A stretch of DNA of 64,000 nucleotides, taken from IMG/VR virus record IMGVR_UViG_3300005435_000020, positions 1 through 64,000 of that record; one strand, given 5' to 3'. The notes beneath the pieces are model-generated. The model had not been told where the DNA came from, ran no database searches, and was given only the letters and a program-made list of their open reading frames with translations. Source of the DNA: a virus. Made by a program: the position numbers and the translations under genes. Below are positions 10,637 to 64,000 of this stretch, in pieces; within the stretch, counting starts at the first letter, position 1, and every line of letters starts with the position of its first letter.

Positions 10637-10643
10637 CAGCATC

Positions 10644-38586: not shown

Positions 38587-38600
38587 CTAAGGGAGGGGCG

Positions 38601-39149: not shown

Positions 39150-39523
39150 AGCGCCTCCTCGCCATCTTCGGGTTTGTCTTCAGTCTGGCGTTTCCACTCA
39201 AAAGCTACGCAGGCTCCGGTGATTGCACCGCCTGGGCCTACGAGATGAGGCCAGACCTCTATGGGAGTGTCTGGGGCAATGCCGGTGGCTGGGCCATAGA
39301 CGCTAGGATGTCTGGCAGGAGTGTCGGCTTCCTACCCAAGGTGGGGGCCATCGCCGTCTGGAGACCATGGACTGGGGGAGCTTGGGGACAAGGACACGTC
39401 GCATATGTGACGAGTGTCGGAGCCTACGGCTTCACTGTCACCGAAATGCATTACCCAGTTTACGGCAGAGTAACATCTCGGTGGGTGCCGAGATATTCAG
39501 GAGCTATGTTCATCTACAAATGA
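39146..39523 (+). CDS. Secreted CHAP-domain peptidoglycan hydrolase
   Basis: Signal peptide; GDCTAWA, WGNAGGW, GHVAYV, EM. Confidence 0.88.
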   Translation: MKRLLAIFGFVFSLAFPLKSYAGSGDCTAWAYEMRPDLYGSVWGNAGGWAIDARMSGRSVGFLPKVGAIAVWRPWTGGAWGQGHVAYVTSVGAYGFTVTEMHYPVYGRVTSRWVPRYSGAMFIYK

Positions 39524-46709: not shown

Positions 46710-47068
46710 ATAGCAATACCGTCACCGACTATAAGGCAGCCTACACATCCCATATGACCTGGCTGCATCGCCTCAAGACGCAGAGTGACGCGGCGGAAAG
46801 TGGCATCAAGCGTCAACTTGAAGCAGCGAAGCGAAACCTCGACGGGGCGCAGAAGGCAGCGGCGGAAGGGGAAGCGGGTGCAAGGAACCGGCTCCCCACC
46901 GCAGCCTTGGCAGTGAGAGAAGCAGAGAAGAATGTCGAAGCCTGGTATTTCGTAAACGCAACGTTGGAGCTTATCATCGCAAAGTCGATATCGGAAGAGA
47001 AAAGGTCAGGGCTGCCTCCAACCATACTAGAATGGATTGATGATGTCAGCCCCCGAGTGCCGAGTTAG
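46697..47068 (+). CDS. Coiled-coil hypothetical protein
   Basis: Start moved to TTG 46697 to avoid long overlap with upstream gene. Confidence 0.55.
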   Translation: MEGLNSNTVTDYKAAYTSHMTWLHRLKTQSDAAESGIKRQLEAAKRNLDGAQKAAAEGEAGARNRLPTAALAVREAEKNVEAWYFVNATLELIIAKSISEEKRSGLPPTILEWIDDVSPRVPS

Positions 47069-47429
47069 CTTTCGCCGCGTAGAGTTACTGGCGAAAGGCG
47101 AGAAGTATACCATCACATCGCTATTATCAGAGGACATGAAGTACAGCCGCGATGTCGTGGAGCATCTCGTCAGGTACTTCTGGCATTTCCTCTCCACGCA
47201 TTACGAGTCGAATGAGCTTTACCTTTGCATCTATTGTGATATTGTCAGCGCCGTCGAGAAGCTTGAGGACCCGAGAGAAAAGCAGGCAATGAAACTCATG
47301 ATGTCAGGCTACGAGATACGAGATGCGATGAATGGCGTCGCACCTCGCCTTGGCGTTGACCAGAAACTCGCCGCCAGGATATGCAAGCGAAGTTATCGCA
47401 ACATAGCGAAGCTTTTAGGTGAGAAGTGA
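47037..47429 (+). CDS. Sigma-70 region-4-like HTH protein (possible late activator)
   Basis: AVEKLEDPREKQ...GY...VA.RLGV.......KR....IAKLL. Confidence 0.6.
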   Translation: MMMSAPECRVSFRRVELLAKGEKYTITSLLSEDMKYSRDVVEHLVRYFWHFLSTHYESNELYLCIYCDIVSAVEKLEDPREKQAMKLMMSGYEIRDAMNGVAPRLGVDQKLAARICKRSYRNIAKLLGEK

Positions 47430-47533
47430 CGAAGCCGATACGCCTCAATCGGGAGGCACTGAAAGCCTGGGATAAAGCCTGTCAGCAATGGGAGAAGAGA
47501 AAGCCAGCAAACAAAAAAGCTAGCTAGCACATC

Positions 47534-47567
47534 AGCCGCCATGCCTCCGGGTGTGGCGGCTTTTTTT
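47534..47567 (+). terminator. Rho-independent terminator
   Basis: AGCCGCCATGCC-TCCG-GGTGTGGCGGCT with T7 run. Confidence 0.85.
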
Positions 47568-47612
47568 ATGCCAAAAGATAACCGCCTAGCGTTATACTAA
47601 CGACAGGGAGGC

Positions 47613-49274
47613 ATGGTCATGATCATCGGATTACTCAGGCGCTGGTCCACACCGAATCAGACGGGAAACTTCCGGCAGGAAGCACACTTCGAGGTGATGG
47701 AGAAAGTTGTCGCCGCGAAGGGATGGGAGTTTGCCTACTACGATGAGGGGCAAGTCTCCGGCAGGGACATGAAGAAGAGGCCCAACCTCCAGAGGCTGCT
47801 TGATGACATCCGTCACAAGAAGGTGCAGGGCATCGGTGCCCTGGACATCGACAGGATCACCCGCGACGAATACCTCGTGGACCCTGGCATCATCCTCTCC
47901 GCCTGCGCCGACGCTGGTGCCATCATCGTCACGAGGGACAGGGTGTATGACCCTCGGAAGAAAAACGATAGGTTCATCTTCCAGGTCCAGAGTGCCATCG
48001 CGGGGAATGAAGTCTCCACGATACGCGAGAGGATGTATGAGGGGCTTTCACGCAAGATGATGGAGTCCCCGGTGCATCGAGGCAGGACACCGTGGGGCTA
48101 TATGCGTGTGCTGGATGGCGTAGACGCGAAAGGCAATGCCATCAGGCATCTTGAGAAAGACCCTGAGCTTACTCCGGTGGTAATGAGGCTCTTCGAGTTA
48201 GCCTCCACGTCACTCTCGGTGCAGGGTGTGTCGGCACAACTCAACGGCGAAGGCCTACTGAAACGACGCTGGAAAGACACGGAGGGTGGGCCTCGTTTCT
48301 GGACACACGCAGACGTGGCGAGTATCGTCTTCAATCCTATTTATTCGGGTAGGCACCACGTCTTGAAGCACCCGACGAAGCCCATCTGGGAAAGCGACGT
48401 CATACCCGAAGGCTTGAGGGACAAGGTTCATTACATAGAAGACTGGGCATTCCTGGACCCTGAGGATCACGATGCCCTGATGAGGCGATTCGAGAAGACG
48501 AAGGCACACGGGACACGGGGCAGGCGCAACGACAATGCGCTGCTTGGCATCCTCTCGTGTCTCTACTGCGGCGGCAAGATGTATTTCTCGAAGCGGAAGC
48601 CGGGGAGTAAACTCAACGACTTCCATTTCTGCTTCAACCACATGGCGTGTAAGACTAGCTGCCGTGGGCAGACGATATCGGACCACCTCGTGAAAGCAGC
48701 CGTCTTCGACTTCATCCAGGGAAGGCTCTCGAAGTCCTTGGTGGAGGAGGTAGCCAATGAGCACCAGGACATCTTCGGCTCCGGCGCTGAAGAGGAGCTA
48801 CGGAGCCTGCGCCTCCAGTTGGCGACGCTAGAAGAGAAGAGGATGCGCTTCAAGCAGATGGCGAGGGCTGCGACGTCGGAAGCACTGGAGCAGACCTACA
48901 CGGAAAACGCAGCGGAGCTACTTGACGAGATTGCTAGTGTGAGGGAGACCTTGCGACAGAAGGAGACGTTTGCCAAGAATAAGGACAGGATGCTCAGCGT
49001 TGTCGAGAATGTGGTCAGGTTCCGAGACGTCATGGAACACGCGGATAGCGCCACGCAGCATGGGCTCCTCACCCACGTGTTCCGATGGGTGAAGGTGGAA
49101 GCCTACGGTGCGATGCAGCATCGGCAAGTCAGGGTAGCAGCCTGGCACCTGATGGGGGAGGAGGAGCCCCAGACGTCTTATCTCACTGACGACGCCATAT
49201 CCCCATATAACGTCGCCATTTGGATGATGCCACCAGGAGTGTGGCGTGATGTTGTCGGTATGTTCACGGCTTGA
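47613..49274 (+). CDS. Large serine recombinase (integrase)
   Basis: RWST (catalytic Ser), DEG.SG..RP.LQRLL, DRITR, PWGY, NPIYSG, LLGILSCLYCG Zn ribbon, coiled coil. Confidence 0.92.
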   Translation: MVMIIGLLRRWSTPNQTGNFRQEAHFEVMEKVVAAKGWEFAYYDEGQVSGRDMKKRPNLQRLLDDIRHKKVQGIGALDIDRITRDEYLVDPGIILSACADAGAIIVTRDRVYDPRKKNDRFIFQVQSAIAGNEVSTIRERMYEGLSRKMMESPVHRGRTPWGYMRVLDGVDAKGNAIRHLEKDPELTPVVMRLFELASTSLSVQGVSAQLNGEGLLKRRWKDTEGGPRFWTHADVASIVFNPIYSGRHHVLKHPTKPIWESDVIPEGLRDKVHYIEDWAFLDPEDHDALMRRFEKTKAHGTRGRRNDNALLGILSCLYCGGKMYFSKRKPGSKLNDFHFCFNHMACKTSCRGQTISDHLVKAAVFDFIQGRLSKSLVEEVANEHQDIFGSGAEEELRSLRLQLATLEEKRMRFKQMARAATSEALEQTYTENAAELLDEIASVRETLRQKETFAKNKDRMLSVVENVVRFRDVMEHADSATQHGLLTHVFRWVKVEAYGAMQHRQVRVAAWHLMGEEEPQTSYLTDDAISPYNVAIWMMPPGVWRDVVGMFTA

Positions 49275-49288
49275 AAGGGAAGCCCACG

Positions 49289-49462
49289 ATGATCTTACTT
49301 GCTTTGATGATCTTCGCTTTGGTAGTCTTGGTGGTAGGAGTGCCCTCGGCATTCCTCCTAGTACTTTCTATCGCTATCATAAGGATCAGTTTGAAGTTAT
49401 GGTGGCTATGGCTGATCATCGCATTGGTCTGCGTCGCGGCTGCGAATGGAGGTTCCGGTTGA
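49289..49462 (+). CDS. Small membrane protein
   Basis: MILLALMIFALVVLVVG...; GAAAGGGA RBS. Confidence 0.6.
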   Translation: MILLALMIFALVVLVVGVPSAFLLVLSIAIIRISLKLWWLWLIIALVCVAAANGGSG

Positions 49463-49938
49463 GATACTTGCTTGGTTTCTTGGTTGCATTCCTGCTGGTG
49501 GGCTGTGCGGATTCGGCACAGACGGTTGTATCATCTCCCACGGCAGTAGCCCCTGCGGCTCCTAGTGCCACACCTGGGGCTGCGGCGGCTACTGTCCCTC
49601 TCGGAAGTGACTTGGAGCTTGCCAAAGTCGCCGCCGTTGCCGACATCAAAGGCGACGAGAAAACGGTGCAACAGGTCATGCAGGCCAACCCACAGGCGGT
49701 GGCACTATTTGTCAAGACGGATAGGCAGAGCTACAACCTCGATATGTACACGGTGGTGGGTGCTGCGGTGGAACAGAAGCCATCGTCCCCCAACCAAGAT
49801 GGCACTGTCATGTATTATTTGGATGTCCCCGTGAAGACCCCGCAAGGGACATCACAGCGTTTTAGTATACAAGTCAGGGTCAATCCCGTGGCACACAGAG
49901 TGACTTCCATTGATCCGATGGGCATAGGACTTGACTAG
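49459..49938 (+). CDS. Lipoprotein
   Basis: GGAGG RBS, TTG start; lipobox LLVGC; Ala/Pro/Thr linker. Confidence 0.75.
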   Translation: MRYLLGFLVAFLLVGCADSAQTVVSSPTAVAPAAPSATPGAAAATVPLGSDLELAKVAAVADIKGDEKTVQQVMQANPQAVALFVKTDRQSYNLDMYTVVGAAVEQKPSSPNQDGTVMYYLDVPVKTPQGTSQRFSIQVRVNPVAHRVTSIDPMGIGLD

Positions 49939-49944
49939 ACAACA

Positions 49945-49985
49945 AAAATAAGCCCCCTACCCGATGAAGGTAGGGGGCTTATTTT
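49945..49985. terminator. Bidirectional terminator between convergent arms
   Basis: AAAATAAGCCCCCTACC-N7-GGTAGGGGGCTTATTTT. Confidence 0.9.
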
Positions 49986-50565
49986 ATTGCTTCAGGAATG
50001 ACGTGATGGGGATTTGCGGGGGAGGCTCCGGCGAGGGGATAGTCACCGTCGTCGTCGTGTTGGCGGGGAATGTCGGCGCTGCCGCATTGAGTGGGGGATT
50101 GGAAAGCGAGGGGTCCACCTTTGGTGTGTAGGATTCCGGCACCTTCATGGACACCGTGACGGGGATATCGACAAGCTTCATGGCGACGTCTACAGACTGC
50201 ACCAAGTCTCCAGGCTTCGTCGGTGCCTCCACAGTGGCTGCGGTGCCACTTGTCTTGTCCACCGTCTGCTTCCCAAGGAAGGCTGGGATCACTTGCGTGG
50301 CACCGTGGTAGCCGAGTACTGCGCCGCCTCCAATCAAGAGGCCACCATTGTAGAGGAGCAGGAGGATGGCCTGGCTGGACTCCGGCATCCCCGAGAACAT
50401 TCCCCACGCGACGATACCGAGGGCTATGCTCACAAGGCGGATCACGGAGTCGTGGATGCTATTGTCTGGTGTGATCTTTAGCTCAATGAAGTTCTTGATG
50501 ATCTGTGTGGCGATGGCAACCATCACCGCCAGGATGAATGGCGTGAGGGCATCAGCGATGGGCAT
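49984..50565 (-). CDS. Holin-like membrane protein (3 TM + Pro/Thr tail)
   Basis: TQIIK...RLVSIALGI...GGLL.GGGAVLGYH pattern; last gene of late operon. Confidence 0.65.
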   Translation of the reverse strand: MPIADALTPFILAVMVAIATQIIKNFIELKITPDNSIHDSVIRLVSIALGIVAWGMFSGMPESSQAILLLLYNGGLLIGGGAVLGYHGATQVIPAFLGKQTVDKTSGTAATVEAPTKPGDLVQSVDVAMKLVDIPVTVSMKVPESYTPKVDPSLSNPPLNAAAPTFPANTTTTVTIPSPEPPPQIPITSFLKQ

Positions 50566-51025
50566 GGTAGACTGTCTCTCCTTGACTTTGTAAGACGATG
50601 ACTGCCGGGGCTTCTACCCCAGGCTTGAGAAATCTCTGAATCAACCATAGTGGGGCCGGGAGATGGTGTATACCCCCTATGCCAGTATGGTGAAATTTAC
50701 AAAGCGGCATCAAATTTTCTTCACTTTCACACCACATGAAGAAGGCTTCTTCGTCGGGTATGTGGAATTGGGGATACAACTCAGCAAACCTACGCCAGTC
50801 TGCGTCGCCTATCAGCGCATACTCCACGAAGTAGTGATGAAGCTCAATGGACTCCTTTGAGCAATCCTTGTTGTCGATGTAGCATTTGAGCTTTCCTTCA
50901 CGACGCATCCTCTCTCGCGTCTCATTGAAGATGTGGTAGTAGGGATCACCCTCTCTTGGAATGTGTGGAGGGTAATGCTCAAGGATTTCGATGTGCTCAT
51001 GCTCAATATGCTCTTGCTCTGACAT
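50552..51025 (-). CDS. HNH-like Zn-binding protein
   Basis: C.....C...IELHH...NLMPLCKFHH...GIH. Confidence 0.65.
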   Translation of the reverse strand: MSEQEHIEHEHIEILEHYPPHIPREGDPYYHIFNETRERMRREGKLKCYIDNKDCSKESIELHHYFVEYALIGDADWRRFAELYPQFHIPDEEAFFMWCESEENLMPLCKFHHTGIGGIHHLPAPLWLIQRFLKPGVEAPAVIVLQSQGETVYHAHR

Positions 51026-51037
51026 GGGAGTGACCAA

Positions 51038-51063
51038 TAAAAAAGGACACCCGAAGGTGTCCT
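51038..51063 (-). terminator. Rho-independent terminator (UUCG loop)
   Basis: Minus strand AGGACACC-TTCG-GGTGTCCT with T run. Confidence 0.8.
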
Positions 51064-51082
51064 GTGGTGTGAAGGAAAAGGG

Positions 51083-51793
51083 TTAGCTCCTGTGGAGCAT
51101 CTCGGCTAAGGCTGCGACGGTTTCCTTCTCGGTGCCGAAGCTTCGGTACATGCTCTCCACGTAGAAAAGTGGCGTCATTATCGTGGTCTTCCCGAAATGG
51201 GAGATGACGCCTTGGCCCCTCTTCGCAACTAGCGCCAGGCCCCTACCTTCTTTGATCACGACGGGGATGCCATCGGCAAGCTCCTGGTTCTCGTAGGGCA
51301 GGCAGCAGAGGACATCGCCTTGCGAAAACTGGAAGGGGAAGGGGCCTTCCTCCAGTACAGCAATACCGCGTTTCTCACTCGACACACCGAAGGTGGGGTA
51401 GGGCACCCTCGTTGCTTGGGAAACCCTCGCCACTTCGCCACTCTTGAGCAACTCGTAGCTGATGATCAGCGTATTATTATGCGCTGCGACTAGCGACTCC
51501 TGCACACCTTGTTGGAGTGCTTCGAGGAGAGGGATGATGGGCTCACGAAAGGGGATCACGTCTCTCGTGGGGAGTGGCGGCGGCTCATCTCCGTGGAGGA
51601 GATAGGTGGTGGATACCTCCAACACTTTCGCTATTTTCTCCAGCGTCTCCGTCGTCGGCTGCGTCTTCCCACTGAGCATCAGGGAGAGTGTCGATGCCCT
51701 GATGCCGGAGGCCAGCGCAAGTTTATTGTCAAGTGTCCAGCCACGCTTCAGCATGGTCTGCTTCAGCCTCTCGGGAAACTCCACCACACACAA
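51083..51793 (-). CDS. XRE HTH regulator (CI-like, degenerate C-terminal domain)
   Basis: FPERLKQ...LALASGIRASTLS....GKTQPTTETLEKIAKVLEVSTTYLL.G. Confidence 0.85.
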   Translation of the reverse strand: MCVVEFPERLKQTMLKRGWTLDNKLALASGIRASTLSLMLSGKTQPTTETLEKIAKVLEVSTTYLLHGDEPPPLPTRDVIPFREPIIPLLEALQQGVQESLVAAHNNTLIISYELLKSGEVARVSQATRVPYPTFGVSSEKRGIAVLEEGPFPFQFSQGDVLCCLPYENQELADGIPVVIKEGRGLALVAKRGQGVISHFGKTTIMTPLFYVESMYRSFGTEKETVAALAEMLHRS

Positions 51794-51822
51794 TCCTCTT
51801 CAACACACCAAAACACTGCTAC

Positions 51823-51851
51823 AGTATATCAGGCGGGTGGTAGTTTCACAA
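51823..51851 (-). promoter_or_regulatory. Dedicated promoter of the XRE gene
   Basis: TTGTGA-17bp-TATACT with TG extension. Confidence 0.6.
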
Positions 51852-52263
51852 CGGAAAGCCAGAAGTTTGAAATGGCCGATACCACCGCCATGAATTGCTC
51901 AAGGTCAAATGGCTTCGTCACGTAGCAGTTTGCGTGGAGGTTATAGCTCTGCAATACATCCTTGTCCTCCTGCGACGTCGTGAGCACCACCACGGGAATA
52001 CGCATCAGGCACTCGTCTTGTTTGATGTCTTGCAGGAGTTCCCTGCCGTCTTTGCGTGGCATGTTGAGGTCAAGGAGGATCAAGTCTGGCCGAGGGGAGT
52101 CCTGGTAGGGTGCTTCGCGTTTCAGGAACCTGAGTGCCTCCACGCCATCGGTGCAGACGTTGATGTGGTTGATGACCTTGGAGTCCCTCAGCAATTCCTG
52201 CGTGAGATCAACGTCTGCCTCGCTGTCGTCTACGATGAGTATTTCAATGGGTACTGCCACCAC
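51829..52263 (-). CDS. Single-domain response regulator (Rcp1-like receiver)
   Basis: ILIVDD, PDLILLDLNMPRKDG, VLTTS, ANCYVTKP, FW..VVKLP. Confidence 0.92.
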   Translation of the reverse strand: MVAVPIEILIVDDSEADVDLTQELLRDSKVINHINVCTDGVEALRFLKREAPYQDSPRPDLILLDLNMPRKDGRELLQDIKQDECLMRIPVVVLTTSQEDKDVLQSYNLHANCYVTKPFDLEQFMAVVSAISNFWLSVVKLPPA

Positions 52264-52270
52264 CTTGCCG

Positions 52271-54103
52271 CTACTTGGAGTATTTCGGGAGGGTGAAGGA
52301 GAAGACTGAACCTTTGTCGGGGACGGAGGTTGCCCAGATGGTGCCACCATGTTGTTCTATGACTTTCTTGCAGATGGAAAGACCTATGCCGGTGCCTTCG
52401 TATTCCTCCTTGCGATGGAGTTTCTGGAATACGACGAATATCTTGTCAGAGTATTGCATATCGAAGCCAATACCGTTATCCGATATATCAATTCGCCACA
52501 TTGAATGTTCATCAGTACAGCGTATCAGGATATTCGGGGGGACACCAGGCTTCCGAAACTTTATCGAGTTGGCGAGGAGGTTCTGGAAGACTTGGGTCAG
52601 CCAGATGGGATCACCCGAGACGGAGGGAAGCTGGTCCCTCTCTATCTCCGCGTGGCTCTCGTTGATGGCTGCTTGTAGGCTGTCTAGTGCCGAATCCACA
52701 CAGGCATTGAGATTGGTCTGCACCATCTCCTTCGTCTTCGACGTGACCCTCGAATAGAGGAGCAAGTCTTGGATGAGGTTCCGCATCCTCTGGGAACCGG
52801 ACACTGCGTAGCCTATGTACTTCTTCGCCTTGTCGTCAAGCTGCGCCGTATACTGTTTGTCGAGGAGTTGGAGATATGACGTCACCATACGCAGGGGCTC
52901 TTGCAAGTCGTGGGAGGCGATGTAGGTGAACCTCTCCATCTCGCCGTTGCTCTTGATCAGCGCCTCCTCGTATCGCTTCCTCTCCGATACATCGCGTATG
53001 GTTGCCGTGTACATCTTGCCGTCACTCTCGGATGCCCACACGGAGATGAGAAGCTCCAGTGGGAACCTGCTGCCATCTTTCTTGACACCCTGCAACTCCA
53101 TGGTGGTGCCGATGACGTGTGAGGGCCACCCCTCCGCGAGGCGTCGGATGCCGTGTTCATGCTTCGGATAGAGGTCAGGGGGGATGATCTTCTCTAGCGT
53201 GTGGCCCACCATCTCCTCCGACGTGTAGCCAAAGATGTTCTCGGCGGCGTGGTTCCAGAAGGTCACGATGCCATCCGGTGTGATGGACACGAAGGCGTCG
53301 GTGGAGGATTGCGTCACATTCCAGTACCACTCCTTGACCTTCTCCACTTCCTTGCGCTGCTGAAGTGTCTGCGCCTCTGCCTTCCTCGTGGCATCCATGA
53401 AGAATCGCATCCCAAGGAAATTGCCTATCACCAGGAGCACACCGAAGATGCTTCCATAGAAGGTGATGCGGAGGCTATTGCGTGTGCCCTCTAGCACCGC
53501 GTCGTATTTCTGCTGGATGGCCTTGGACTGCCTGTCGAGGATGTTGCCCAGGAGGGTGCTGGCATCGACGCCTTGATAGAGACCTTCATCTGTCATGACG
53601 AGGGCAACGGCTTCATCGTGGGAACCTGATTGCTCAAGCTCAATGGTCCTGAGCATCTCTGATCTCTTCTGGGTGATGAGCCTCTTCGCCTCCGAGAAGT
53701 CCCTCGCATCGTCGGTGCTGTCTTGTGTGGTGGCCTGCGTCGCGTCTATGGCAGTGTTGATGACCTTATTCGCGTCATTGTAGGACATGAGATAGAGGGG
53801 GTCCCCGGTGAGCAGGTAGCCACGCTGCCCACTCTCCATCTGCTTCAGGTCCAACAGTGTTTGGTAGACGTTGTAGTATTCTAGCCTGGCGCTGCGATAA
53901 TCTTGCAGGACATAATAGACCCTGGCGACGATGACGACGGAGTAGATATACGCCGCCACGAGGATGGCGAGTGTGCCCAGGGAACAGAAGGTCAAGAAAC
54001 GCTGGGAGGTCATGAGATGAAATGGAGCAGGATGCCACACAATGTTATGATGCCGCCACATACCAGGGACCAGTTTCCGAAGAGGTGAAATCTTTGGAGC
54101 CAC
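52271..54103 (-). CDS. Membrane sensor histidine kinase CHASE3-PAS-HisKA-HATPase
   Basis: ESGQRGYLLTGDP.YL..Y (CHASE3) between two TMs; WNHAAE.IFGY (PAS); SHDLQEPL; N, G1, F, G2 boxes. Confidence 0.93.
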   Translation of the reverse strand: MAPKISPLRKLVPGMWRHHNIVWHPAPFHLMTSQRFLTFCSLGTLAILVAAYIYSVVIVARVYYVLQDYRSARLEYYNVYQTLLDLKQMESGQRGYLLTGDPLYLMSYNDANKVINTAIDATQATTQDSTDDARDFSEAKRLITQKRSEMLRTIELEQSGSHDEAVALVMTDEGLYQGVDASTLLGNILDRQSKAIQQKYDAVLEGTRNSLRITFYGSIFGVLLVIGNFLGMRFFMDATRKAEAQTLQQRKEVEKVKEWYWNVTQSSTDAFVSITPDGIVTFWNHAAENIFGYTSEEMVGHTLEKIIPPDLYPKHEHGIRRLAEGWPSHVIGTTMELQGVKKDGSRFPLELLISVWASESDGKMYTATIRDVSERKRYEEALIKSNGEMERFTYIASHDLQEPLRMVTSYLQLLDKQYTAQLDDKAKKYIGYAVSGSQRMRNLIQDLLLYSRVTSKTKEMVQTNLNACVDSALDSLQAAINESHAEIERDQLPSVSGDPIWLTQVFQNLLANSIKFRKPGVPPNILIRCTDEHSMWRIDISDNGIGFDMQYSDKIFVVFQKLHRKEEYEGTGIGLSICKKVIEQHGGTIWATSVPDKGSVFSFTLPKYSK

Positions 54104-54130
54104 AGGAGCTTTCTTATTTCCTTACGAATT

Positions 54131-54985
54131 TTATGATGGGGTTGTTGTGGTAGTTGTCGTCGTGGTTGTTGTTGCTGGAGATGGTAAGGTGTGAGCACCT
54201 TCCTCACTACTTCTATCAATGACGGAGGAGATGTCCTGCACAAGCCTGACTAACTGCTGCCTATTGAATGGCACAGGGAACAGGAAAACCTTTTCCGGTA
54301 GCTCCTTGTCCAGGGACAGATAGCTCCTCGATGACGGGTCACCAAACTCTAATGCGAGTATGAATGCGATTTTGTTGTATCCTGGCATCCTCCTGACGGT
54401 GTTCACGAATTCGTAGCTGTCGGATTTGAAGGACAGGACATCCACGATGATCACACCCAGCGTGGAGGAAGTCATCGTGGAGATGAGGTTCAGTGCATCG
54501 TTGCGACTCTTTGCGACGACGACGGAGAAGCCGTGGTTGATGAGGAGTTCCTGCGTAGCCTCCCGTATCCTCCCTTCGTTGCCGACGACAAGCACCGTGA
54601 TGCTTGAGGGGAGGCTCAAATCGCCTTCGTTGCCGATGAGGAAACCAAACGACTTGGCGGAATTCTTGACGGTGAGGATGAACCTCTCCTGCCTGTCCAG
54701 AGACGTTTGCATGTCCCTGATACGCTGGTCTTGCGTGTAGGCAGCGGCTTTCATGGCTGTCATCTGGCCATCCATCTGGTCAAGCTTCGTCTTCTGCGTG
54801 GCGGCGTCTTCCCTGAGTGTCTTCATGTCGTTGGTCAAGGAGTCGTTGAGGGTCTTCATCTGGCCTATGATCTCGGATTTGATGTCCCGGTGGTTGCGTC
54901 GCAGCAGCACATAGGAAGTCACCATGGCCCCGAAGCCGCCGAGGGCAGAGCCTATCTGGACTAAGGGGATGTCAGTGATGAGCAT
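54131..54985 (-). CDS. TM + coiled coil + atypical receiver-domain protein
   Basis: N-terminal TM, heptads, then VLVVGNE...L...GFSV..A...DAL...IIVDV receiver-like fold; poly-Thr tail. Confidence 0.7.
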   Translation of the reverse strand: MLITDIPLVQIGSALGGFGAMVTSYVLLRRNHRDIKSEIIGQMKTLNDSLTNDMKTLREDAATQKTKLDQMDGQMTAMKAAAYTQDQRIRDMQTSLDRQERFILTVKNSAKSFGFLIGNEGDLSLPSSITVLVVGNEGRIREATQELLINHGFSVVVAKSRNDALNLISTMTSSTLGVIIVDVLSFKSDSYEFVNTVRRMPGYNKIAFILALEFGDPSSRSYLSLDKELPEKVFLFPVPFNRQQLVRLVQDISSVIDRSSEEGAHTLPSPATTTTTTTTTTTPS

Positions 54986-54989
54986 TGCG

Positions 54990-56129
54990 TTACTTCAGGT
55001 AGAGTTCCACGGCACCAGCATACCACTGATCACCACGGTTATAACATTCAATAATACGATTAGTGAGCCTGACGCGATACCGTATCTCGCCATTCACAAC
55101 CTCCTGGTACTCCCCGGTGAGGCAGGGTCCGGGGTTCTCCATATCCGCCGTGGGGTCGCCAGCGGCAACCAGCGCCAAGTACTTCTCGCGGAGGGGCTTC
55201 AGGCCATACTTATACAGTGCCGAATCAGCACTGGGAGGGTATCCATACATTCCATAGTAGGCAATAATAGAATCGGTAGACTGTGGCTGCGTGGGCACTG
55301 GGGTATCTCCTACTGTGACGTAATCGGCTATTGTGTCCAACACAGGATCAGTTAGCCGGAAGCTGTTCCAGTCTGTGTCGTTGCCGACTTGGTAGATGGT
55401 GGCACCTAGCTCCATAGCATCCGTCAGCATCGCGTCACCCAAGGCGATGAGTTGCGACGCATATACTTCGTCGGGGATGCCGTGAGCCCTATAGCCGTTA
55501 GTGTTTGTGTAGGAGGTGTCCCCTTGACTATTGGGGATCACGCCGAAGTCGATGCCAGCCTCCGAGTAGATGCGTGGCTTTGTGCCATAGCGTGGGTCAA
55601 GCTGGACATACTTGCGTGGCCTGAGTGCAAGCCAGTCAGACGACGTGAGGACACCGGGGGCACCGTAGGCGTGGTAGCTCCACGCATCTGCCTGCAAGAC
55701 GCAGGGTGCCAGGATATCCAACACACGTCGTATGTCGTCGTCGCTGCCAGCGGGGGTGCCGACAGCCAGGGATAAATCGGAGACCTTAAGGCCAGCGCCT
55801 TGGAGGCGCTTCGTCACTTCGAGGTTGAATTTATTGTAGAAGACGGGATCACCGAGGGCTTCATTGTAAAGCTCCCAGTAGTCCACGATGCCTTTGACGG
55901 TTTGGCTCTCCGTCAGGATGGCCTGCGCCATCTCCTCTTCGTTGCCGTCTTGATTGATCATCCTTCGGCAGACGATGATGGCCTGCGGGTTGTCCTTACG
56001 TATCTCCACCAGCGATTCTTCGTCGCTATTGAGGAATTTCAGGATGCCCCAGGAGCCGTTGCCTTTGTTGATGGCGTTTCTGGCGAGTGGCGAATAGTTA
56101 TTGGCGTGTAGGCCAAGCTTCTTCTTCAA
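54990..56129 (-). CDS. Glycoside hydrolase-like TIM barrel (possible endolysin)
   Basis: LGLH, WELYNE, SYHAYG, SEAGID clan-A-like pattern; follows tail genes. Confidence 0.6.
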   Translation of the reverse strand: MKKKLGLHANNYSPLARNAINKGNGSWGILKFLNSDEESLVEIRKDNPQAIIVCRRMINQDGNEEEMAQAILTESQTVKGIVDYWELYNEALGDPVFYNKFNLEVTKRLQGAGLKVSDLSLAVGTPAGSDDDIRRVLDILAPCVLQADAWSYHAYGAPGVLTSSDWLALRPRKYVQLDPRYGTKPRIYSEAGIDFGVIPNSQGDTSYTNTNGYRAHGIPDEVYASQLIALGDAMLTDAMELGATIYQVGNDTDWNSFRLTDPVLDTIADYVTVGDTPVPTQPQSTDSIIAYYGMYGYPPSADSALYKYGLKPLREKYLALVAAGDPTADMENPGPCLTGEYQEVVNGEIRYRVRLTNRIIECYNRGDQWYAGAVELYLK

Positions 56130-56164
56130 TGGTACCTCCGTTCCATTACAACGAAACGGGGGGT

Positions 56165-56575
56165 TTACGGGAGGTAATAAGGGATTCTTACCATCACACC
56201 ATCCACCTTGGCCCAGGCATAACCTTTCGGTGTGGCGGGTAGAGCCGTGGCACCTCCAGCCGTCGCGGAGGTGGACGTCTTCAGGCCCGTGAATTGCAAC
56301 ACGCCGTTGTCGAAGAAGAGTATGCTCTTCTTATCGACGGAAGAGAGCCTCAATGCTTCGGCGGCTGCCCTATTCGATGTCGAGATGGCGAGGGCATACT
56401 GTGTGTGGTCATCCTCTTTGATGCCATCCAGCCTGGAGTGCAAGGCGATGATGCCATAGAACCTCTCCAAGTCGTCCACCCTATCCGTCAAGTCCCGTAT
56501 TTTCAAGACGGGGTTGTAGGGGACCTTCACATCAGCCAAGAGGTCTGGTCTGAACCTATCCGGCGGTGCCGCCAC
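56165..56575 (-). CDS. Small tail-associated protein
   Basis: ATALPATPKGY.....DG...RIPYY motif; synteny. Confidence 0.6.
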   Translation of the reverse strand: MAAPPDRFRPDLLADVKVPYNPVLKIRDLTDRVDDLERFYGIIALHSRLDGIKEDDHTQYALAISTSNRAAAEALRLSSVDKKSILFFDNGVLQFTGLKTSTSATAGGATALPATPKGYAWAKVDGVMVRIPYYLP

Positions 56576-57597
56576 TAGAGTACCTCCACGAGGTATCTGA
56601 CGGGTTTCGCCGCGTATTCATCGACTTCCCTGCCCACAATCCTCGCGGGGAGGCTCAAGCCGTTGGGTCCAAACGACGCAAGCTGCACCGTGATGGTGTC
56701 GCCTTCGGAGGCTTGCCCCCATTCGCCATTGTTATTCGAGGCATAGAAGTCGAGAAGCTCCCTGGGCCTGTATTTCCTCTCAAGGTTTCGCCTTGCGATG
56801 TCACTCAATGCCGAAGCGTGAACAATGTCGTATCTCACGTTGGTGGCCTGGTAGAGGCCATACTGCGTGATGCTTGCGTGGTCACTGTGTTGGGCATGCG
56901 GCGCTGCCTCCCATGCTCCGTCTCCCCTGCCGATGAATACAGTGTCATTGATAAGCTCCTCACCATCTCGTGTGTAGGTAACTTCGTCGTCTATGTTCTG
57001 GCCTTCACTGAAGAGCACCGAGTCTGTCTTGTCCACACCTCTATTACCCGTGTGCAGGACACCCTGCCCATTCGGCAGCATCTCCACCCACCAGTCCACA
57101 CCCGTGTCGTAGGGGAGACGCCTCAAGGCAGCGAGGCCACCCGTGAAGTGGAATTCCTTGGAGAGTGGCGCTGACGTGTCGGCATTGTCTGGCGACGCGA
57201 TGACGAAAGGCGAAGTGAGGGCAGTAAGCTGCTTATTCAATTCCGACGCCGACTTGTAGGGGAAAAACTCGGATTTGCCGAGACGTCGCCTCGCAAATAT
57301 GTAGGCCATCTCCTTACACGTCACCGTCAAGGTCAGTCGTGTCTCGTCAATGCGTGTGATCCAGCCTCCCCACGGCGTGATACCTGCCGTCGAGTTGATC
57401 ATCACTATCCTGCCGATGTCCAACACAGGATTGTTGCTATTGAGTTTGTAGAAAGGATTGGTCTTGTCGAGGACTAGCCTGGCCTGTCCTATCCCGTTGA
57501 GAACATAGCTTCGCTGTACCGAATACAGCTTGTTTAGCTCTCCTATCTTTCTGTGGGAAAGGTCAAAGATTCCTACCTCCGCGTAAAAGATAGCAAT
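56575..57597 (-). CDS. Minor tail protein (Tal/Gp37-like) with non-canonical start
   Basis: Position after Dit; frame open 57 codons upstream of track start; WGGWI, RG.D...V.F..G.NI, GD.ITV motifs. Confidence 0.7.
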   Translation of the reverse strand: MAIFYAEVGIFDLSHRKIGELNKLYSVQRSYVLNGIGQARLVLDKTNPFYKLNSNNPVLDIGRIVMINSTAGITPWGGWITRIDETRLTLTVTCKEMAYIFARRRLGKSEFFPYKSASELNKQLTALTSPFVIASPDNADTSAPLSKEFHFTGGLAALRRLPYDTGVDWWVEMLPNGQGVLHTGNRGVDKTDSVLFSEGQNIDDEVTYTRDGEELINDTVFIGRGDGAWEAAPHAQHSDHASITQYGLYQATNVRYDIVHASALSDIARRNLERKYRPRELLDFYASNNNGEWGQASEGDTITVQLASFGPNGLSLPARIVGREVDEYAAKPVRYLVEVL

Positions 57598-57627
57598 ACT
57601 CCTATATTATAATATCAATGACAGACA

Positions 57628-60219
57628 TTACAGCCACGAATCATTCCAATCGACTTCGAGATTGACGCCTCCCACGGTGTCTTCTTTGTATTGGAGGAAG
57701 TTGTCTCCGGGGTGTAGCTGTAGCCAGAATGGGCGAATAATGCCTACGGTGGAGAGTGCCGAAGTCCTCAGCGTCTGAGTACCGTCAGGCGCTTGGTACC
57801 AGACTTGTTTGTTTCGGGTGTCAATCATAAGGCTTGCTTTCGGCTCAAGTGGTGTGGAGATGACGATGGCATCCCCGTCTCCCGCCGTCGCCTGCGTGAT
57901 GGTGGCATTCAAGTCGTAAAACGTCTGCACAGGCTGGGGCACAACCGACACCACATACTGGGGATTGAAGGCGATGGTGACACCCTCAATAGAGGCGAAG
58001 GTGCCATCCTGATTATTCGGGATCAAAACAGACGTATTGACCTCAAACCTGACACGTTGCCTGGGAGGTACGATGGTATCGACGCGAGGGCTGCCGGAGG
58101 TTGAGTAGGCGACGGGGCCACCCGTCGTCAGGGAAGGCTGCCCCCACACGACAATGGGAGGGTATTGTGCATCTTCCGCCATGAGCCTCAAGACGTTATT
58201 ATTCAGGTAGTCACTGCCGACGAAGCTTGTCAAGCCATAGTGGGTGACTTGTGTGATCCCTGCGGGATGGGATATTTCCCAACCATTCAGGGGCACCTCG
58301 CGGTTATTCACGCCGACGCTGGAATGGAGCATCCCCATGACCTGAGCAATATTGGTGGTGGGGTCCTTGAGTGGAGTGTGGGTTGAGACGTCCACCGTGG
58401 GATAGATGAAAGCATCGTCAAGCCTGCCGAGGCCCACACCCAGCAGCGACAATATCTGCACCGACACGCCGGTAGTCGTCGCAGTGAAGGGGAGTTGGAT
58501 GTGTTGGTAGGCTTTGCTCCCAGCCGCATAATAAAAGGCAAGGATATTCGTAGTCGTGGAGTCCAATACCTGCACCACAAACGCATTGTCGGTGTCGGCC
58601 CAGACCCAGGCATCTATTGTGTAGCTCAGTCCCGAGATGAGACCCGCAGGGTTTGTGTTCCTGACGTATTCATTTGCCGCAAGGGGGGCAAAAGAGAGGG
58701 AGTAGGTATCGAGTGAGCCTGGCGAGGGATTGGTGTTATCGACGCCTACGGTGCCTGTAGATGATACCGTCCACCCCGTGAGGCTCCCCGACGAGAAGGT
58801 CTGGTTGGTGAAGGTAATCGCAGGTGACGTCGCATACGCCGTTTCCTGTCCCCTATGCACTATATTATTGTCTTGCTTCCAGCCGTAGCCGACACCTTGG
58901 GACTGCACAGGTGACCATGAGCCTGGTCTCGTGTTGTAGATGTAGTCGAAGAATTGTGTCCACGTCCAGCTATAGTTGTTGGAATGTGCCGTGTCGAGTA
59001 TCAAGGGATCACCCAACGCGAAGTCAGGCTGCGGATCAGGAAGCGTGTTCCCATACTGGATGTAGACGGTTTGCGACGCCTGTGCACCGAGATTCAGGAG
59101 AGCCCATACCTTCGTCTGCTGTGTGTTCAGGTTCTCCACCACTCGCGGCGCTGGGATGTTCCCCACCAGCACACGGATGTCGCTGCCGTCAGCCTTCATC
59201 TTCCCTGCGCTGATCAGCGCCGCCGTGTTCCACCCCGTGGTATTCGACGTCGGCAGGGCAGCGCCAGTCGTCGTCAATGCGGCGAGGGTCACCGTCAGCG
59301 TCGTCGCGTAGGGGTTTGGCTGCGATGTCGTGGATTGGAGTGTGAGGCTGCCGGGGGCACCAGCGTAGACGTTATAGGCGAAGGCATCCGTGGTGGTTGG
59401 GATGGTGAAAGTGACCTTGCCGCTGGCCCCCACCACCACCGACACCGGAGTAGCATCGCTTTCTCCGAGGGTGCCATCTAGCCTCGTCTTCTGGATGGTG
59501 ACGGCAACGGAGAGGGTCTGCGCCGGGATGGAGCCGCCACTCCCCGCCGTCGCGGTGAAGAGGGGAGGTGGCGTGTATCCTGTCAATTCGATGGGGATGC
59601 GTGTCGTCGCAGACAAAGCATTATTCGTGATGGTCACCGGCACCTGATAGGTGTAGAAGTTGCCGGTGTTGCCTGCGGCACCCTTGGGTGTGTTCCAGGT
59701 AATGATGAGTGTCGGAAAGGTATCCGTGGTGCCAGCCGACGTGATCTTGACTTGCTGACCCGACGTGGTGATGGGGACCATAACCTTGCTAGACGTCTCC
59801 GAGAGCCAGACGGCATCCGGCACCGCAAACTCAACCTGCACCCACCTTTCCGTCTTATTGATGGTGAAGGATTTTGCGGTACCAAGCACCGTCTTCGCAG
59901 TCTGGCTTGGCCTCTGGAGGCGAAGCGTCGAGAGCAACTGGCTGCGAGTGTCGAAGGCCCTCTTCAGGAGGTTGAGCTTCGACTCGAAGTCGAGATAGTT
60001 GGTGTCCCCCGCCACGTAGTGGATGTTGATGTGGAGGGTGATGGTCTTCTCTGCGGATATCTGCCCAGTGTAGACGGGAGGCCCAAACGCAACCTTCTGG
60101 ATGCGTAAATCGGCGGGTGCCTGGTCATCGAGATTCGTGTTTGGGACGGAAAAACTCACGCCGTCATTGAGTTCCAGGCCATTGATCTGGATAGACGAGA
60201 GGGAAGATAGTGCCGCCAT
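57628..60219 (-). CDS. Distal tail (Dit-like) protein with inserted beta-sandwich/CBM-like modules
   Basis: Follows TMP; Dit-like N- and C-termini (FWLQLHPGDN.L...W..SWL); KADGSDIRV...YIQYGN and FSSGSLTGW inserts. Confidence 0.75.
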   Translation of the reverse strand: MAALSSLSSIQINGLELNDGVSFSVPNTNLDDQAPADLRIQKVAFGPPVYTGQISAEKTITLHINIHYVAGDTNYLDFESKLNLLKRAFDTRSQLLSTLRLQRPSQTAKTVLGTAKSFTINKTERWVQVEFAVPDAVWLSETSSKVMVPITTSGQQVKITSAGTTDTFPTLIITWNTPKGAAGNTGNFYTYQVPVTITNNALSATTRIPIELTGYTPPPLFTATAGSGGSIPAQTLSVAVTIQKTRLDGTLGESDATPVSVVVGASGKVTFTIPTTTDAFAYNVYAGAPGSLTLQSTTSQPNPYATTLTVTLAALTTTGAALPTSNTTGWNTAALISAGKMKADGSDIRVLVGNIPAPRVVENLNTQQTKVWALLNLGAQASQTVYIQYGNTLPDPQPDFALGDPLILDTAHSNNYSWTWTQFFDYIYNTRPGSWSPVQSQGVGYGWKQDNNIVHRGQETAYATSPAITFTNQTFSSGSLTGWTVSSTGTVGVDNTNPSPGSLDTYSLSFAPLAANEYVRNTNPAGLISGLSYTIDAWVWADTDNAFVVQVLDSTTTNILAFYYAAGSKAYQHIQLPFTATTTGVSVQILSLLGVGLGRLDDAFIYPTVDVSTHTPLKDPTTNIAQVMGMLHSSVGVNNREVPLNGWEISHPAGITQVTHYGLTSFVGSDYLNNNVLRLMAEDAQYPPIVVWGQPSLTTGGPVAYSTSGSPRVDTIVPPRQRVRFEVNTSVLIPNNQDGTFASIEGVTIAFNPQYVVSVVPQPVQTFYDLNATITQATAGDGDAIVISTPLEPKASLMIDTRNKQVWYQAPDGTQTLRTSALSTVGIIRPFWLQLHPGDNFLQYKEDTVGGVNLEVDWNDSWL

Positions 60220-63200
60220 TTATTGTCCCATGTGCTGTGTTTGCTGCACCCAGTAATCGACGTTTTGCGGGCTGCTCATGTCCATCTTGTCCACGTTGAT
60301 GTTGGTGGTTTTGTTGACGGTATGCTGCTGGTTCTCGGAGGCTGACGCGAGGCTCCTGATGGCATCGGCAACGTTGTTCAGACTGTTGGCGATGTCGCTG
60401 GTCATGCCCTGCGAGTTGTCCCCCACTGAGTACAACATATCCTTCACGCCACTTGCCACCTGCTGGATGACGTCTTGGAATGGCGTGATCTGGCTGCCGC
60501 GAGGGAGGTTCAGAAGTTCTTGCCCCTTCTCACCGACCCACGTCAAGCCGCCCATCCAGTTGCTGGTACCCGCGGCATTGTGGCCAGGAGGGGGTGTTGT
60601 CGCTGCCACGGCGGCGGCGTGGGCAGCCTCCCATTGTGATTTGGGAAGAGCAGTCCTGCCAGCAGCCACTTCGCCTTCGTAGGTCACACCATCACCCGCC
60701 ACCCCGCCACCGGAAGGGGCACTCCCGCCACCACCAAGACCCATTAGCTCTTGTATTTTTGCTTTCACCGCATTGATCTTATCGCTTATGTTTTGGATAA
60801 GACCATTGAAAGGACCAGTCAATGCAGTTTCTGCGGCGGTAATGGCGCTGGTAAACGCGGCAACTATGGCGTCTTTGAAGGTAGGCCACCACCCTGCCAA
60901 GAAGGTTCCTACAAGTTTCAATAAGGCCCCGAAGACATCGCTGATGAATTTCGAGAGACCCGCCGCGAAATCAGAAATACTGTTCCTATTCAGGAAGTCA
61001 AGCAGGGCAGTCCATATGGCCTTTACCTTGTCCCACAAGGCACCGGCCCATGTCGAGGTTTGGGATACCCAATACTTGAACCACTGGGTCATCAGGCCAT
61101 CTATCCACGTCTGGAATTGATTGAGTGGATTGGAGTCTGCCGTGATGTCATCCATGGCACCCTTCCACATCTCGGCAATCTTAGCCTCAAGGTCTGTGGC
61201 CCATTTCCCCAGCATGCTGCCAACGTGGTCTTGTATCCATTTCGACACGAGGTTGTCAATCCAGCCCTCGAAGCGTGTCTTGGGATTGTCGTCTCCTATC
61301 AGGAGGTCAAGTGCCTTGAGGAACAGGGTCAGGAGTTTATCTTTGAGGCTCTGTGACCTATTCGGCTGCTCCGAGTCCTGGTGCTTCCAGAAGGCTGGGA
61401 AAAGTGTCGTGTCAAGCCAGGCTTGTAGCTGGGCAAGTGGCCCACCGTCTGCCACGAGGCTTGCCACAGCCTGCGTGAACATCGTGAGGAAGAAGGTGAA
61501 AAGCTGATTGGCCCAAGTCCCTAGCTGGCTCATGGCGTAGCCGATGAGCTTGACGATGAGGCCACCGAACCACACCGTGAGGTCAAGGAGCAGTTTCCCC
61601 GCAGCGTAGAGTAACTCGAAGGCTGCTTCCATCACCAAGATGAGGACAGGCCCCAACGCTGCACCCCACGCGGGAGCATTGGCCTTCACCCAGTTGACGA
61701 GGTTGGTGATCAGCTTCTCGAAACTCTTGCCCATGGAAGAGCCTCCACTCCCTTGCACCCCTCCGTCTGAGGTGATGGCCTTGTCGATGTTATTGAGAAA
61801 CTCGGCCATGATGTGGTACCAACCGGCGAGGAGTTTCAAGGCGAAGGGAACCGCTTGGGTGACGATGAAGTTGACGGCAGCGCCGATGAGGTCACCCAGC
61901 TTTGCGCCGACGATGGGTCCATATGTCTTGAGGGTGTCTCCCACCGCGTCAGTAAAACTCTTCCAGATGACGGAGAAGTTGTCGCTTATCGTCTTGCCCC
62001 ACTTCGGAGCATTTGCCCTGATGGTTGCGACGATGTTCCCGATGATGGTGCCCAGCGCAGTGCCAAGGTCACCGCCTATCTTCCCGATGTCCCCGAAGAT
62101 GGCCCCGAGTTTGTCTCCGAAGCTCAGGTTCTTATTGTTGAGGATGCCCATGATGTCTTGGAAGATGGGCTGCGCCGCAGACCAAAATCCTTTCAAGGCG
62201 GTGGTCATCCCCATCCAGTTGGTCTCCCAACCGGCTTTCAACATCTGGATGATCTGGATGATGTTGAGTGCCCAGCCCACGATGGGGACAGCCCTCAAGA
62301 TGCCGCCGATGATGGGAAACCTCAGGAACACACCGAGAAAATCACCGAGAAGCCCTATCAGTGGTGTGATGGCTGCTTTCGCCCCGCCTAATATGGTCCC
62401 AAAAACACCGAAAGCACCGCCAGCCTCCGTGATAAGCCTCGCAAACATCGGGAGTGGCACCAACATGTCCTTGATGACGCCACTAAACTCTTTGATAGCA
62501 GCGATGGGGAGCCTGTCGAGACCAGTGACCTTACCGATGCCCCCGAGAATGTCTGAGCCGACACCTCCCACAGCACCGGCTGCGCTGCCAACCGCGTCGG
62601 CAGCCCTTGATCCATAGGCCAGGGGCCTTGCCAATCCCGCAAGCCTTCCCGGTGCCCCCACAATCCCGCCGCCGCTTACCGATGCCCTGATGGCGAGGTC
62701 TTTGAGGATGTCTCCCAGCCCTTGCGTTGCGCCTGTTCCGAGGAGGTCAGCGGCACCTCCGGCAAGTCCACCTTCACCCAGGAGGGAACCAGGGAGGCGC
62801 AGACCCCTGACGAAGCCTGAGACCTGTGGGCCACCGAGAGCCCTGCCAGCGAAGAGGCCCAACACGTCGCTGAGCTTGCCACCAACGCTGCTGAGATTGG
62901 AAGCAGCGGAGGTGAGGGCTCCCAGTCCCGGTATGCCACCCGTCGCAGCCATCGCCGCCGTGATCAGCGGAAGGTTGTTGGCAACGCCGGAATCTTGCTG
63001 CTGACGGAAGCGAGACGCCGAAAGTCTGCCCTCTGTCCTGGCATTCATTCTCGTGTCGTAGAGGGCATAGTCGTGGTAGTACTGCTGCAAGGCGGCGTCT
63101 TGGTCCTCTGTGGAGCCTCCCATCCTACCGCGAAGTCTTGGCCTCGCTATGGCACCCTGGCTAGCATTGACACCAAAAGCGCCGAGGATGCCATCGGTGA

Positions 63201-63999: not shown

Positions 64000-64000
64000 A

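Follow-up and report, generated by a model that had tools for sequence, protein, structure and literature searches.

Sequence profiles and structure prediction support the conclusion that the virus record IMGVR_UViG_3300005435_000020 encodes, directly behind its tail genes, a complete two-component signaling set: a sensor histidine kinase, a stand-alone Rcp1-family receiver, and a coiled-coil protein fused to a receiver-like domain that has lost its active pocket, with a glycoside hydrolase gene just upstream (Table 1). The DNA analyzed, hereafter the window, is the first 64 kb of this 100,907-bp IMG/VR record, a linear contig that CheckV estimates to be ~66% complete. What is new here is a two-component system in a phage that joins a fused pseudo-receiver, probably membrane bound, to a kinase that may take two inputs. 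The function that we rank first, and hold only tentatively, is a late-acting role directed at the membrane, most likely the timing of lysis; the case for it is built on gene position and on analogy.

Four genes separated by gaps of 4, 27, and 7 bp had been described in an earlier reading of the letters and their open reading frames (ORFs), here called the sequence-only reading; all four lie on the minus strand, and this arrangement holds for the longest ORFs. The public gene call (P0001) starts the kinase at Met31 (position 54013), which shortens it to 580 residues and widens the 27-bp gap to 117 bp.

The kinase and its stand-alone receiver are intact

The kinase consists of a first transmembrane helix, CHASE3, a second transmembrane helix, PAS, HisKA, and HATPase_c, in that order. 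CHASE3 (PF05227, residues 78 to 198) scored 86.3 bits against a cut-off of 28 and sits between transmembrane helices at residues 42 to 60 and 213 to 231, a placement that predicts a domain facing the outside of the membrane, as the sequence-only reading had proposed. PAS, HisKA (43.9 bits), and HATPase_c (94.4 bits) all exceed their Pfam cut-offs. The H-box histidine, His398, lies in the motif ASHDLQEPLR, and H398, N508/N512, D542-N543-G544-G546, F556/F559, and G570/G572/G574 are invariant between this kinase and 17 homologues. Judged by these motifs, every catalytic box is kept and the catalytic core is complete.

When the PAS domain was compared with the PDB, all 13 best matches were DosP or FixL heme domains (DosP 1e-15, FixL 1e-12; range, 1e-15 to 1e-11). 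The histidine of the DosP motif PAHPEY, the proximal heme ligand His77, is matched in the alignment by His315 of the kinase, and the DosP positions Met95 and Arg97, in the distal part of the heme pocket, align to Thr and Met. Among the aligned kinase homologues, the consensus at the position of His315 is not His. The kinase may have two inputs, an outside cue received by CHASE3 and the internal oxygen or redox state received by a heme-PAS-like domain. The second input fits the metabolic cue put forward by the sequence-only reading, with heme binding by the PAS domain a tentative prediction from the alignment. The nearest solved relatives of this domain are those of FixL and DosP (PDB 1D06, 1DP6, 1V9Y, and 9CLO); FixL passes its signal to the DNA-binding FixJ, whereas the receiver in the window has no output domain.

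That receiver, 144 residues long, matches PDB 5te9 (4e-48), Rcp1 over its full length (4e-43), and RcpA (9e-42), and it scores 82.3 bits (3.5e-23) with Pfam PF00072. It keeps the acidic pair DD, the phospho-accepting Asp of LLDLNMP, the Thr of LTTS, the Lys of TKP, and the C-terminal FWL..V.LP tail, and it is predicted to be catalytically complete. With Pfam domains above cut-off and all catalytic residues kept in both proteins, the earlier claim of an intact kinase and an intact Rcp1-like receiver is upheld.

The pair resembles Cph1-Rcp1 and the bacteriophytochrome pairs (Rcp1, PDB 1I3C/1JLK; RcpA, PDB 1K68) in the H-box ASHDLQEPLR, in the FWL..V.LP tail of the receiver, and in having a kinase gene followed directly by a stand-alone receiver without DNA-binding output. 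Unlike Cph1, the kinase carries no phytochrome/GAF photosensor, its input consisting instead of CHASE3 and the heme-PAS-like domain; the pair is, moreover, phage encoded and accompanied by a pseudo-receiver protein whose N-terminal segment is hydrophobic.

A coiled-coil protein carries a degraded receiver domain

The 284-residue protein runs from a weakly hydrophobic N-terminal segment (residues ~5 to 28) through a long helix or coiled coil (9 to 109) to a receiver-like domain (130 to 255) and a poly-Thr tail. In a single-sequence AlphaFold model, one helix covers residues 9 to 109 and a (beta-alpha)5 domain covers 130 to 255, the latter with a predicted local distance difference test (pLDDT) value of 65 to 80. 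Foldseek matched this domain to receiver domains with template-modeling (TM) scores given as 0.78 to 0.85; its top nine matches are all receiver domains, listed at 0.75 to 0.81 with a root mean square deviation of ~3 Å. Pfam Response_reg scored 18.2 bits (E = 0.003), below its cut-off of 30.2. In the motif VVGNEG, GN replaces the acidic pair; IIVDV keeps the Asp; FPVPF has no Lys; and there is no Thr or Ser at beta4. Having lost the acidic pair, Thr/Ser, and Lys, and scoring below the Pfam cut-off, the domain is classed here as a pseudo-receiver. The sequence-only reading had spoken of a transmembrane-receiver protein; its receiver fold stands, its active pocket does not, and its membrane segment is weak, so that membrane anchoring is predicted as probable only.

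The coiled coil matches an Rz-like spanin PHROG (3e-5) and Pfam XhlA (E = 0.17), and the protein was an orphan in a word-based search of 5.8 billion clusters. In complex prediction, the kinase DHp-CA dimer with the pseudo-receiver scored 0.34, the best control scoring 0.00, and the pLDDT of the partner was at least 70. Solved complexes came up to the mark used for such predictions in 58 of 80 cases and mismatched pairs in 2 of 110 (at scores of 0.60 or lower, 7 of the 80 and both mismatches). The runs disagreed on the contacts, and we treat the score as weak support; we give it little weight because solved kinase-receiver complexes exist, and it may reflect likeness only. The C terminus of the protein (54131 to 54175, minus strand) contains a run of eleven threonines (PATTTTTTTTTTTPS).

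The upstream gene encodes a glycosidase of an uncurated family

The 379-residue hydrolase has a TTG start with GGAGG 6 nt ahead of it. It had no Pfam or PHROG match, and a PDB sequence search with it returned nothing useful. Its AlphaFold model (pLDDT 88.6) shows a TIM barrel followed by a C-terminal beta domain, for which Foldseek found PslG, GH5 mannanases, and GH26, GH30, and GH128 enzymes, the best structural match being the exopolysaccharide hydrolase PslG. Across 39 aligned homologues, five residues (N89, E90, H153, Y155, and E190) never vary. The model has the (beta/alpha)8 barrel of clan GH-A, with the Asn-Glu acid/base pair on strand 4 (N89-E90) and the Glu nucleophile on strand 7 (E190). 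Since barrel, structural matches, and invariant residues agree, we identify the protein as a clan GH-A glycosidase, and the sequence-only reading was right to call it a glycoside hydrolase.

Extra domains occur in 8 of the 39 homologues (Amidase_2 in five; SpoIID, M23, and SLT in one each), which points to the cell wall as substrate without proving it. By this association the hydrolase is a candidate wall-degrading or lytic enzyme. With 203 relatives found in an exhaustive HMMER search, the enzyme defines a family of over 200 proteins that is uncurated, lacks a Pfam model, and is often fused to peptidoglycan hydrolases.

The signaling set belongs to the phage

The set is phage owned and not host DNA. 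Phage genes lie on both sides of it, with terminase, portal, T4-like capsid, and tail genes toward one end and integrase, helicase, and ribonucleotide reductase genes toward the other. A mundane explanation for finding a kinase in such a place would be that host DNA was misassembled onto phage DNA, or that the genes are decaying cargo, and the record is indeed a metagenome contig of limited completeness. Against this, a single Logan contig of 52.5 kb spans positions 46000 to 64000 and crosses all junctions without mismatch and at even depth, being probably built from the same reads. A rhizosphere metagenome from another study holds near-identical pieces of 151 to 196 nt (96 to 100% identity) within 49559 to 54476; one, at 52275 to 52425, covers the kinase-receiver junction without mismatch, and another lies in the 284-residue protein gene. 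Codon usage and GC content at third codon positions of the signaling genes equal those of the adjoining tail genes and are thus typical of the phage, and all catalytic motifs are intact. We give the artifact almost no credence: the misassembly that the sequence-only reading had named as a danger is ruled against by the phage genes on both sides, the even-depth contig, and the phage codon usage. The identity of the rhizosphere pieces also implies that this phage, or one closely related to it, is found beyond the fuel-cell sample.

Cellular homologues of the kinase reach 43 to 45% identity at best over the PAS-to-ATPase part (58% of its length) and no more than 54% over the kinase core. With the best of them only 43 to 45% identical, there is no sign of a recent cellular donor.

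The phage itself is distant from known ones. Its terminase is at most 28% identical to known terminases (28% to that of an Acidobacteria phage) and its capsid protein ~26%; on these sequences none of the cultured phages is close, and blastn against INPHARED gave no match. A related-locus search of metagenome contigs with the hydrolase-family protein P0122 as the query found nothing, and the hydrolase alignment found three short metagenome contigs only. Two weak matches (20 to 23% identity), both in metagenome-assembled genomes of Anaerolineales, came from a related-locus search of genome contigs, and the terminase weakly matched 3 of 401 Chloroflexota genomes, one of which is unpublished and supports no claim made here. 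The Atlas neighbors of the hydrolase are mostly from Chloroflexota, and a 52%-identical hydrolase homologue is encoded on a 20,469-bp contig.

Kinase-receiver cassettes recur in other viruses

Phage-encoded sensor kinases had been called rare in the sequence-only reading, which overstates the matter: one IMG/VR scan with the kinase alignment as the query yielded 24 loci with this type of kinase. In at least 16 of these 24 viral loci the kinase is directly followed by an Rcp1-like receiver. Profiles of the neighboring genes revealed an ordered four-gene cassette of kinase, Rcp1-like receiver, second receiver, and C-terminally anchored coiled-coil protein, present in eight contigs (L008, L011, L015, L018, L021, where the last gene is weak, L024/L025, and L026) as well as in the jumbo phage My-WqHQDG of Microcoleus, which is predicted to be lytic. 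The cassette is absent from the text of the My-WqHQDG preprint and was not found described in the literature that we searched. Its second receiver is catalytically complete and has a helical tail of ~150 residues, shorter in the My-WqHQDG, L024, and L025 copies; its anchored protein is 130 to 187 residues long with a C-terminal membrane anchor, and two such proteins weakly match the XhlA-type "hemolysin" PHROG phrog_1193 (4e-4 and 9e-3). In L018 the cassette stands between a major head gene (1.7e-88) and a tail fiber gene (3.6e-62).

The window shares with this cassette a homologous kinase core (35 to 43% identity) and the Rcp1-like receiver (32 to 42%). It differs in its accessory proteins and its sensor. 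The cassette has a complete second receiver and a separate anchored protein, placed last and held by its C terminus, whereas the window has one protein, placed before the kinase, in which a coiled coil links a hydrophobic N-terminal segment to a dead receiver. Cassette kinases have PAS or GAF-PAS and no CHASE3; among the viral kinases at large, sensor domains vary (PAS, GAF-PAS, and ETR1_N), and CHASE3 is found only in the kinase of the window. If the origins are independent, such convergence would argue that the kinase-receiver pair works with a membrane coiled-coil protein.

Two further arrangements appeared in the scan. At 6252 to 7836 of L028, a kinase with an ethylene-receptor-type ETR1_N domain (1.3e-26) is followed by an Rcp1-like receiver. 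Four contigs of 219 to 548 kb (L006, L007, L014, and L017) share ~16 kb of synteny around the kinase, with two receivers downstream on the other strand; they could represent giant phages, or else bacterial sequence misclassified as viral.

A late, membrane-directed role is the leading reading

By its position, the set would be transcribed together with the late tail genes and the glycosidase gene. The kinase would integrate an extracellular cue with the oxygen or redox state of the cell and phosphorylate the 144-residue receiver. Because neither receiver is predicted to bind DNA, the output would run through protein contacts at the membrane, where the dead receiver could provide the docking site through which the coiled-coil membrane protein holds the kinase or the receiver. 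Most likely, what is timed in this way would be the breakdown of the envelope, carried out by the glycosidase together with the holin-like protein.

A parallel for part of this arrangement is found in the prophage PBSX, in which XhlA is needed together with the holin XhlB for lysis (PMC5589764). As in PBSX XhlA-XhlB-XlyA, a small coiled-coil membrane protein stands beside a wall hydrolase and a holin-like gene. However, neither that system nor T4-type antiholin control includes a kinase or a receiver, and the profile matches in the window are weak. The temperate phage phiCDHM1 carries the agr genes AgrB, AgrD, and AgrC, among them a sensor histidine kinase homologue (PMC7790227); phiCDHM1 has no partner regulator, whereas the window has both kinase and receiver, and the families are unrelated.

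A more specific version of the proposal is that several phage lineages independently arrived at one circuit, in which a sensor kinase and a stand-alone receiver are joined by a further receiver tied to a membrane-anchored coiled coil, and that in this phage CHASE3 and heme-PAS cues act through a pseudo-receiver that gates the holin-like protein or the hydrolase. We consider this version possible and doubtful; if true, the phage would own a lysis clock that senses the environment, a kind for which the literature searched has no description.

Several findings weigh against a role in lysis timing, the first of them concerning the comparison with other viruses. No homology could be detected between the 284-residue protein and either accessory protein of the cassette, be it the second receiver or the anchored protein: profiles of these two gave no match to it at E values up to 1 (hhalign probabilities, 0.15 and 0.25), and its sequence similarity to the accessory proteins of the Microcoleus phage or of other cassettes was not significant. 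The kinase core of the window branches among metagenomic proteins outside the viral collection, apart from the viral cassette kinases, in a quick FastTree tree whose comparison set was the best matches of the query. Because the 284-residue protein is unrelated and the kinase core branches apart, the parallel between window and cassette is architectural only. No related loci were found in viral contigs with the kinase, the Dit-like protein, or the hydrolase as the query.

Other objections arise within the window. The N-terminal hydrophobic segment of the 284-residue protein is weak, with a mean Kyte-Doolittle value below 1.6 over 19 residues, and its XhlA and spanin-like matches are weak and confined to coiled coils. 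Canonical CAP, CHAP, and Amidase_2 genes are located in the replication arm, on the other strand and 12 kb from the signaling genes, so the main lysis enzymes may lie elsewhere; no transmembrane protein follows these genes, and the contig gave no match to Phage_lysozyme, SLT, or Peptidase_M23. Of the "tail-lysis operon" of the sequence-only reading there remains a tight, co-oriented cluster behind tail genes with a wall-hydrolase-like enzyme; as a lysis cassette it is a candidate only, with canonical CHAP and Amidase_2 genes at 39 to 40 kb on the other strand.

The transcriptional link to the holin-like gene is also weakened. Between the signaling genes and that gene lies an XRE gene with a promoter-like site (51851 to 51823) and a terminator (51063 to 51044), so that it looks like its own transcription unit, and the holin-like gene would need read-through or a start of its own. 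The sequence-only reading had seen no promoter or terminator separating the set from the late genes. Our scan agrees for the signaling genes; it says little, being consensus based with the host not identified and finding fewer promoter-like sites than shuffled sequences give, and the XRE unit contradicts the claim for the stretch before the holin-like gene. The only sizeable gap upstream of the signaling genes is one of 201 bp (57427 to 57627) after the Dit-like gene; it contains TATAAT-like and GGAGG strings and may house a promoter missed by the consensus scan. The holin-like gene does lie downstream, as had been claimed, and its 193-residue product has three transmembrane helices, no Pfam or PHROG match, and viral Atlas neighbors. 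Its assignment to a holin family comes from a weak Atlas structure lead to Phage_holin_5_2 (0.87; TM scores, 0.39/0.53), to be read as a lead only.

The last objection is that the large serine integrase fits a temperate phage, and expression from the prophage is equally possible. The set could then be a lysogeny sensor, with the receiver acting on the adjacent or another phage XRE protein and the cue setting induction or the choice between lysis and lysogeny. The integrase gene lies beyond the convergence point at a distance of 2.5 kb, 35 bp separate the receiver gene from the start of the XRE gene, and the receiver has no output domain. The XRE protein showed no S24 domain in Pfam even at E values up to 5 and so does not have the helix-turn-helix plus S24 makeup of CI/LexA-type repressors; it may on that account need an inactivation partner. 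Conversely, the XRE gene seems to be a separate unit, no cro-like divergent gene accompanies it, a phage predicted to be lytic has an analogous cassette, and another such cassette lies among structural genes. We judge a lysogeny sensor unlikely.

The pair might instead be a moron that plugs into host two-component pairs of like type and alters the physiology of the host during infection or lysogeny, whether by adding a sensor, draining phosphate, or acting as a decoy, with no direct part in lysis. Kinases of the ASHDLQEPLR type with Rcp1-type receivers are very common in cells (4,947 matches), the sensor domains of viral kinases vary widely (PAS, GAF, ETR1_N, and CHASE3), and temperate phages often keep accessory genes between the tail genes and the integrase; a lipoprotein-like ORF also follows the integrase here. 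Rewiring of the host would leave unexplained the fused membrane pseudo-receiver and the recurrent pairing with membrane-anchored coiled coils. The composition of the genes is fully phage adapted, and no sign of a separate promoter was seen, which is weak evidence. On balance this is a plausible minority view, more doubtful than not.

Prophages often carry defense genes, and the three-part logic of the set is that of Detocs. The kinase would then sense a competing phage, the small receiver would act as a buffer, and the receiver-fused membrane protein would kill the cell. In Detocs, the logic of DtcA to DtcC unites a kinase, a stand-alone receiver that possibly buffers phosphate, and a receiver fused to another module, and some operons have transmembrane effectors (preprint 10.1101/2023.01.24.525353). 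The Detocs kinase is cytoplasmic and of the TPR type, whereas the kinase in the window is a membrane sensor with an outside CHASE3 domain; the fused receiver of Detocs is phosphorylatable, whereas the one here, in the late arm of a phage, lacks the acidic pocket needed for activation by phosphorylation. PADLOC, with a 2023 library that may lack Detocs models, gave no match for the kinase or the receiver and an E value of only 0.002 for the 284-residue protein. Membership in Detocs fails on the sensor type and the dead receiver pocket, and we regard a defense function of this kind as highly improbable.

The phage decisions known so far are governed by DNA damage, by peptide or quorum signals, or by superinfection, and in a limited literature search we found no paper assigning a function to a complete phage-owned two-component pathway. 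If lysis or induction answers, through this set, to an outside cue and to the oxygen state of the cell, viral release could be timed to the surroundings of hosts in soil and biofilms. For work in culture, the four-gene cassette provides a way in through the cyanophages related to Microcoleus phage My-WqHQDG that carry it.

Genome context

The ORF map divides the whole contig into two convergent arms. Coordinates of all features, together with those of the cassettes in other viruses, are collected in Table 1.

Table 1. Coordinates of the signaling set, of other features of the phage contig, and of four-gene cassettes in other viruses
Sequence	Feature	Position	Strand	Remarks
Phage contig	Rcp1-family stand-alone receiver, 144 aa	51829..52263	-	7-bp gap to kinase gene; alternative ATG at 52350
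Phage contig	Sensor histidine kinase, 610 aa	52271..54103	-	27-bp gap to 284-aa gene
Phage contig	Pseudo-receiver coiled-coil protein, 284 aa	54131..54985	-	4-bp gap to hydrolase gene
Phage contig	Glycoside hydrolase, clan GH-A type, 379 aa	54990..56129	-	TIM barrel and C-terminal beta domain
Phage contig	136-aa gene	56165-56575	-	Overlaps minor-tail-like gene; upstream tail block 56165..60219
Phage contig	Minor-tail-like gene, 283 aa	56575-57426	-	Weak PHROG tail match
Phage contig	Dit-like gene, 863 aa	57628-60219	-	Weak PHROG tail match
Phage contig	Tape-measure gene, 2318 aa	Starts 60220	-	Extends beyond window
Phage contig	XRE/CI-like regulator, 236 aa	51083..51793	-	HTH_3 6.5e-12 and unassigned C-terminal domain; PHROG repressor families
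Phage contig	HNH-endonuclease-like gene, 161 aa	50552..51037	-	phrog_8048 1.7e-11
Phage contig	Holin-like gene, 193 aa	49984..50565	-	Last gene of minus arm; transmembrane helices 1-19, 41-59, 66-84
Phage contig	Hairpin terminator, strong, 18-bp stem	49945..49985		Site where the two arms converge
Phage contig	Large serine integrase	47613..49274	+	phrog_95 1e-52; Resolvase, Recombinase, Zn_ribbon_recom; convergent with signaling arm
Phage contig	Three wall-hydrolase genes	38457-40023	+	Secreted CAP 7e-07; 125-aa CHAP peptidase with signal peptide 5e-12; Amidase_2 6.5e-24
Phage contig	tRNA-Ile, anticodon TAT	7731-7805	+	Sole tRNA of contig
Phage contig	Plus arm	1-49.9 kb	+	Many small genes, DnaB-like helicase, ribonucleotide reductase, RNA ligase, large serine integrase
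Phage contig	Minus arm	100.9 to 49.98 kb	-	Terminase, portal, T4-like capsid gene, tape-measure, Dit-like, small tail genes
My-WqHQDG (OR578706)	Cassette	88856-91946
L002	Cassette	8020-11110
L008	Cassette	7260-10300
L011	Cassette	7864-10522
L015	Cassette	7764-10316
L018	Cassette	7605-10498
L021	Cassette	8001-10573
L024	Cassette	7218-10205
L026	Cassette	7392-10282

After the integrase gene, an ORF at 49246 to 49938 on the plus strand encodes a lipoprotein-type signal with the lipobox LVGC and is possibly a lysogenic-conversion or exclusion gene.

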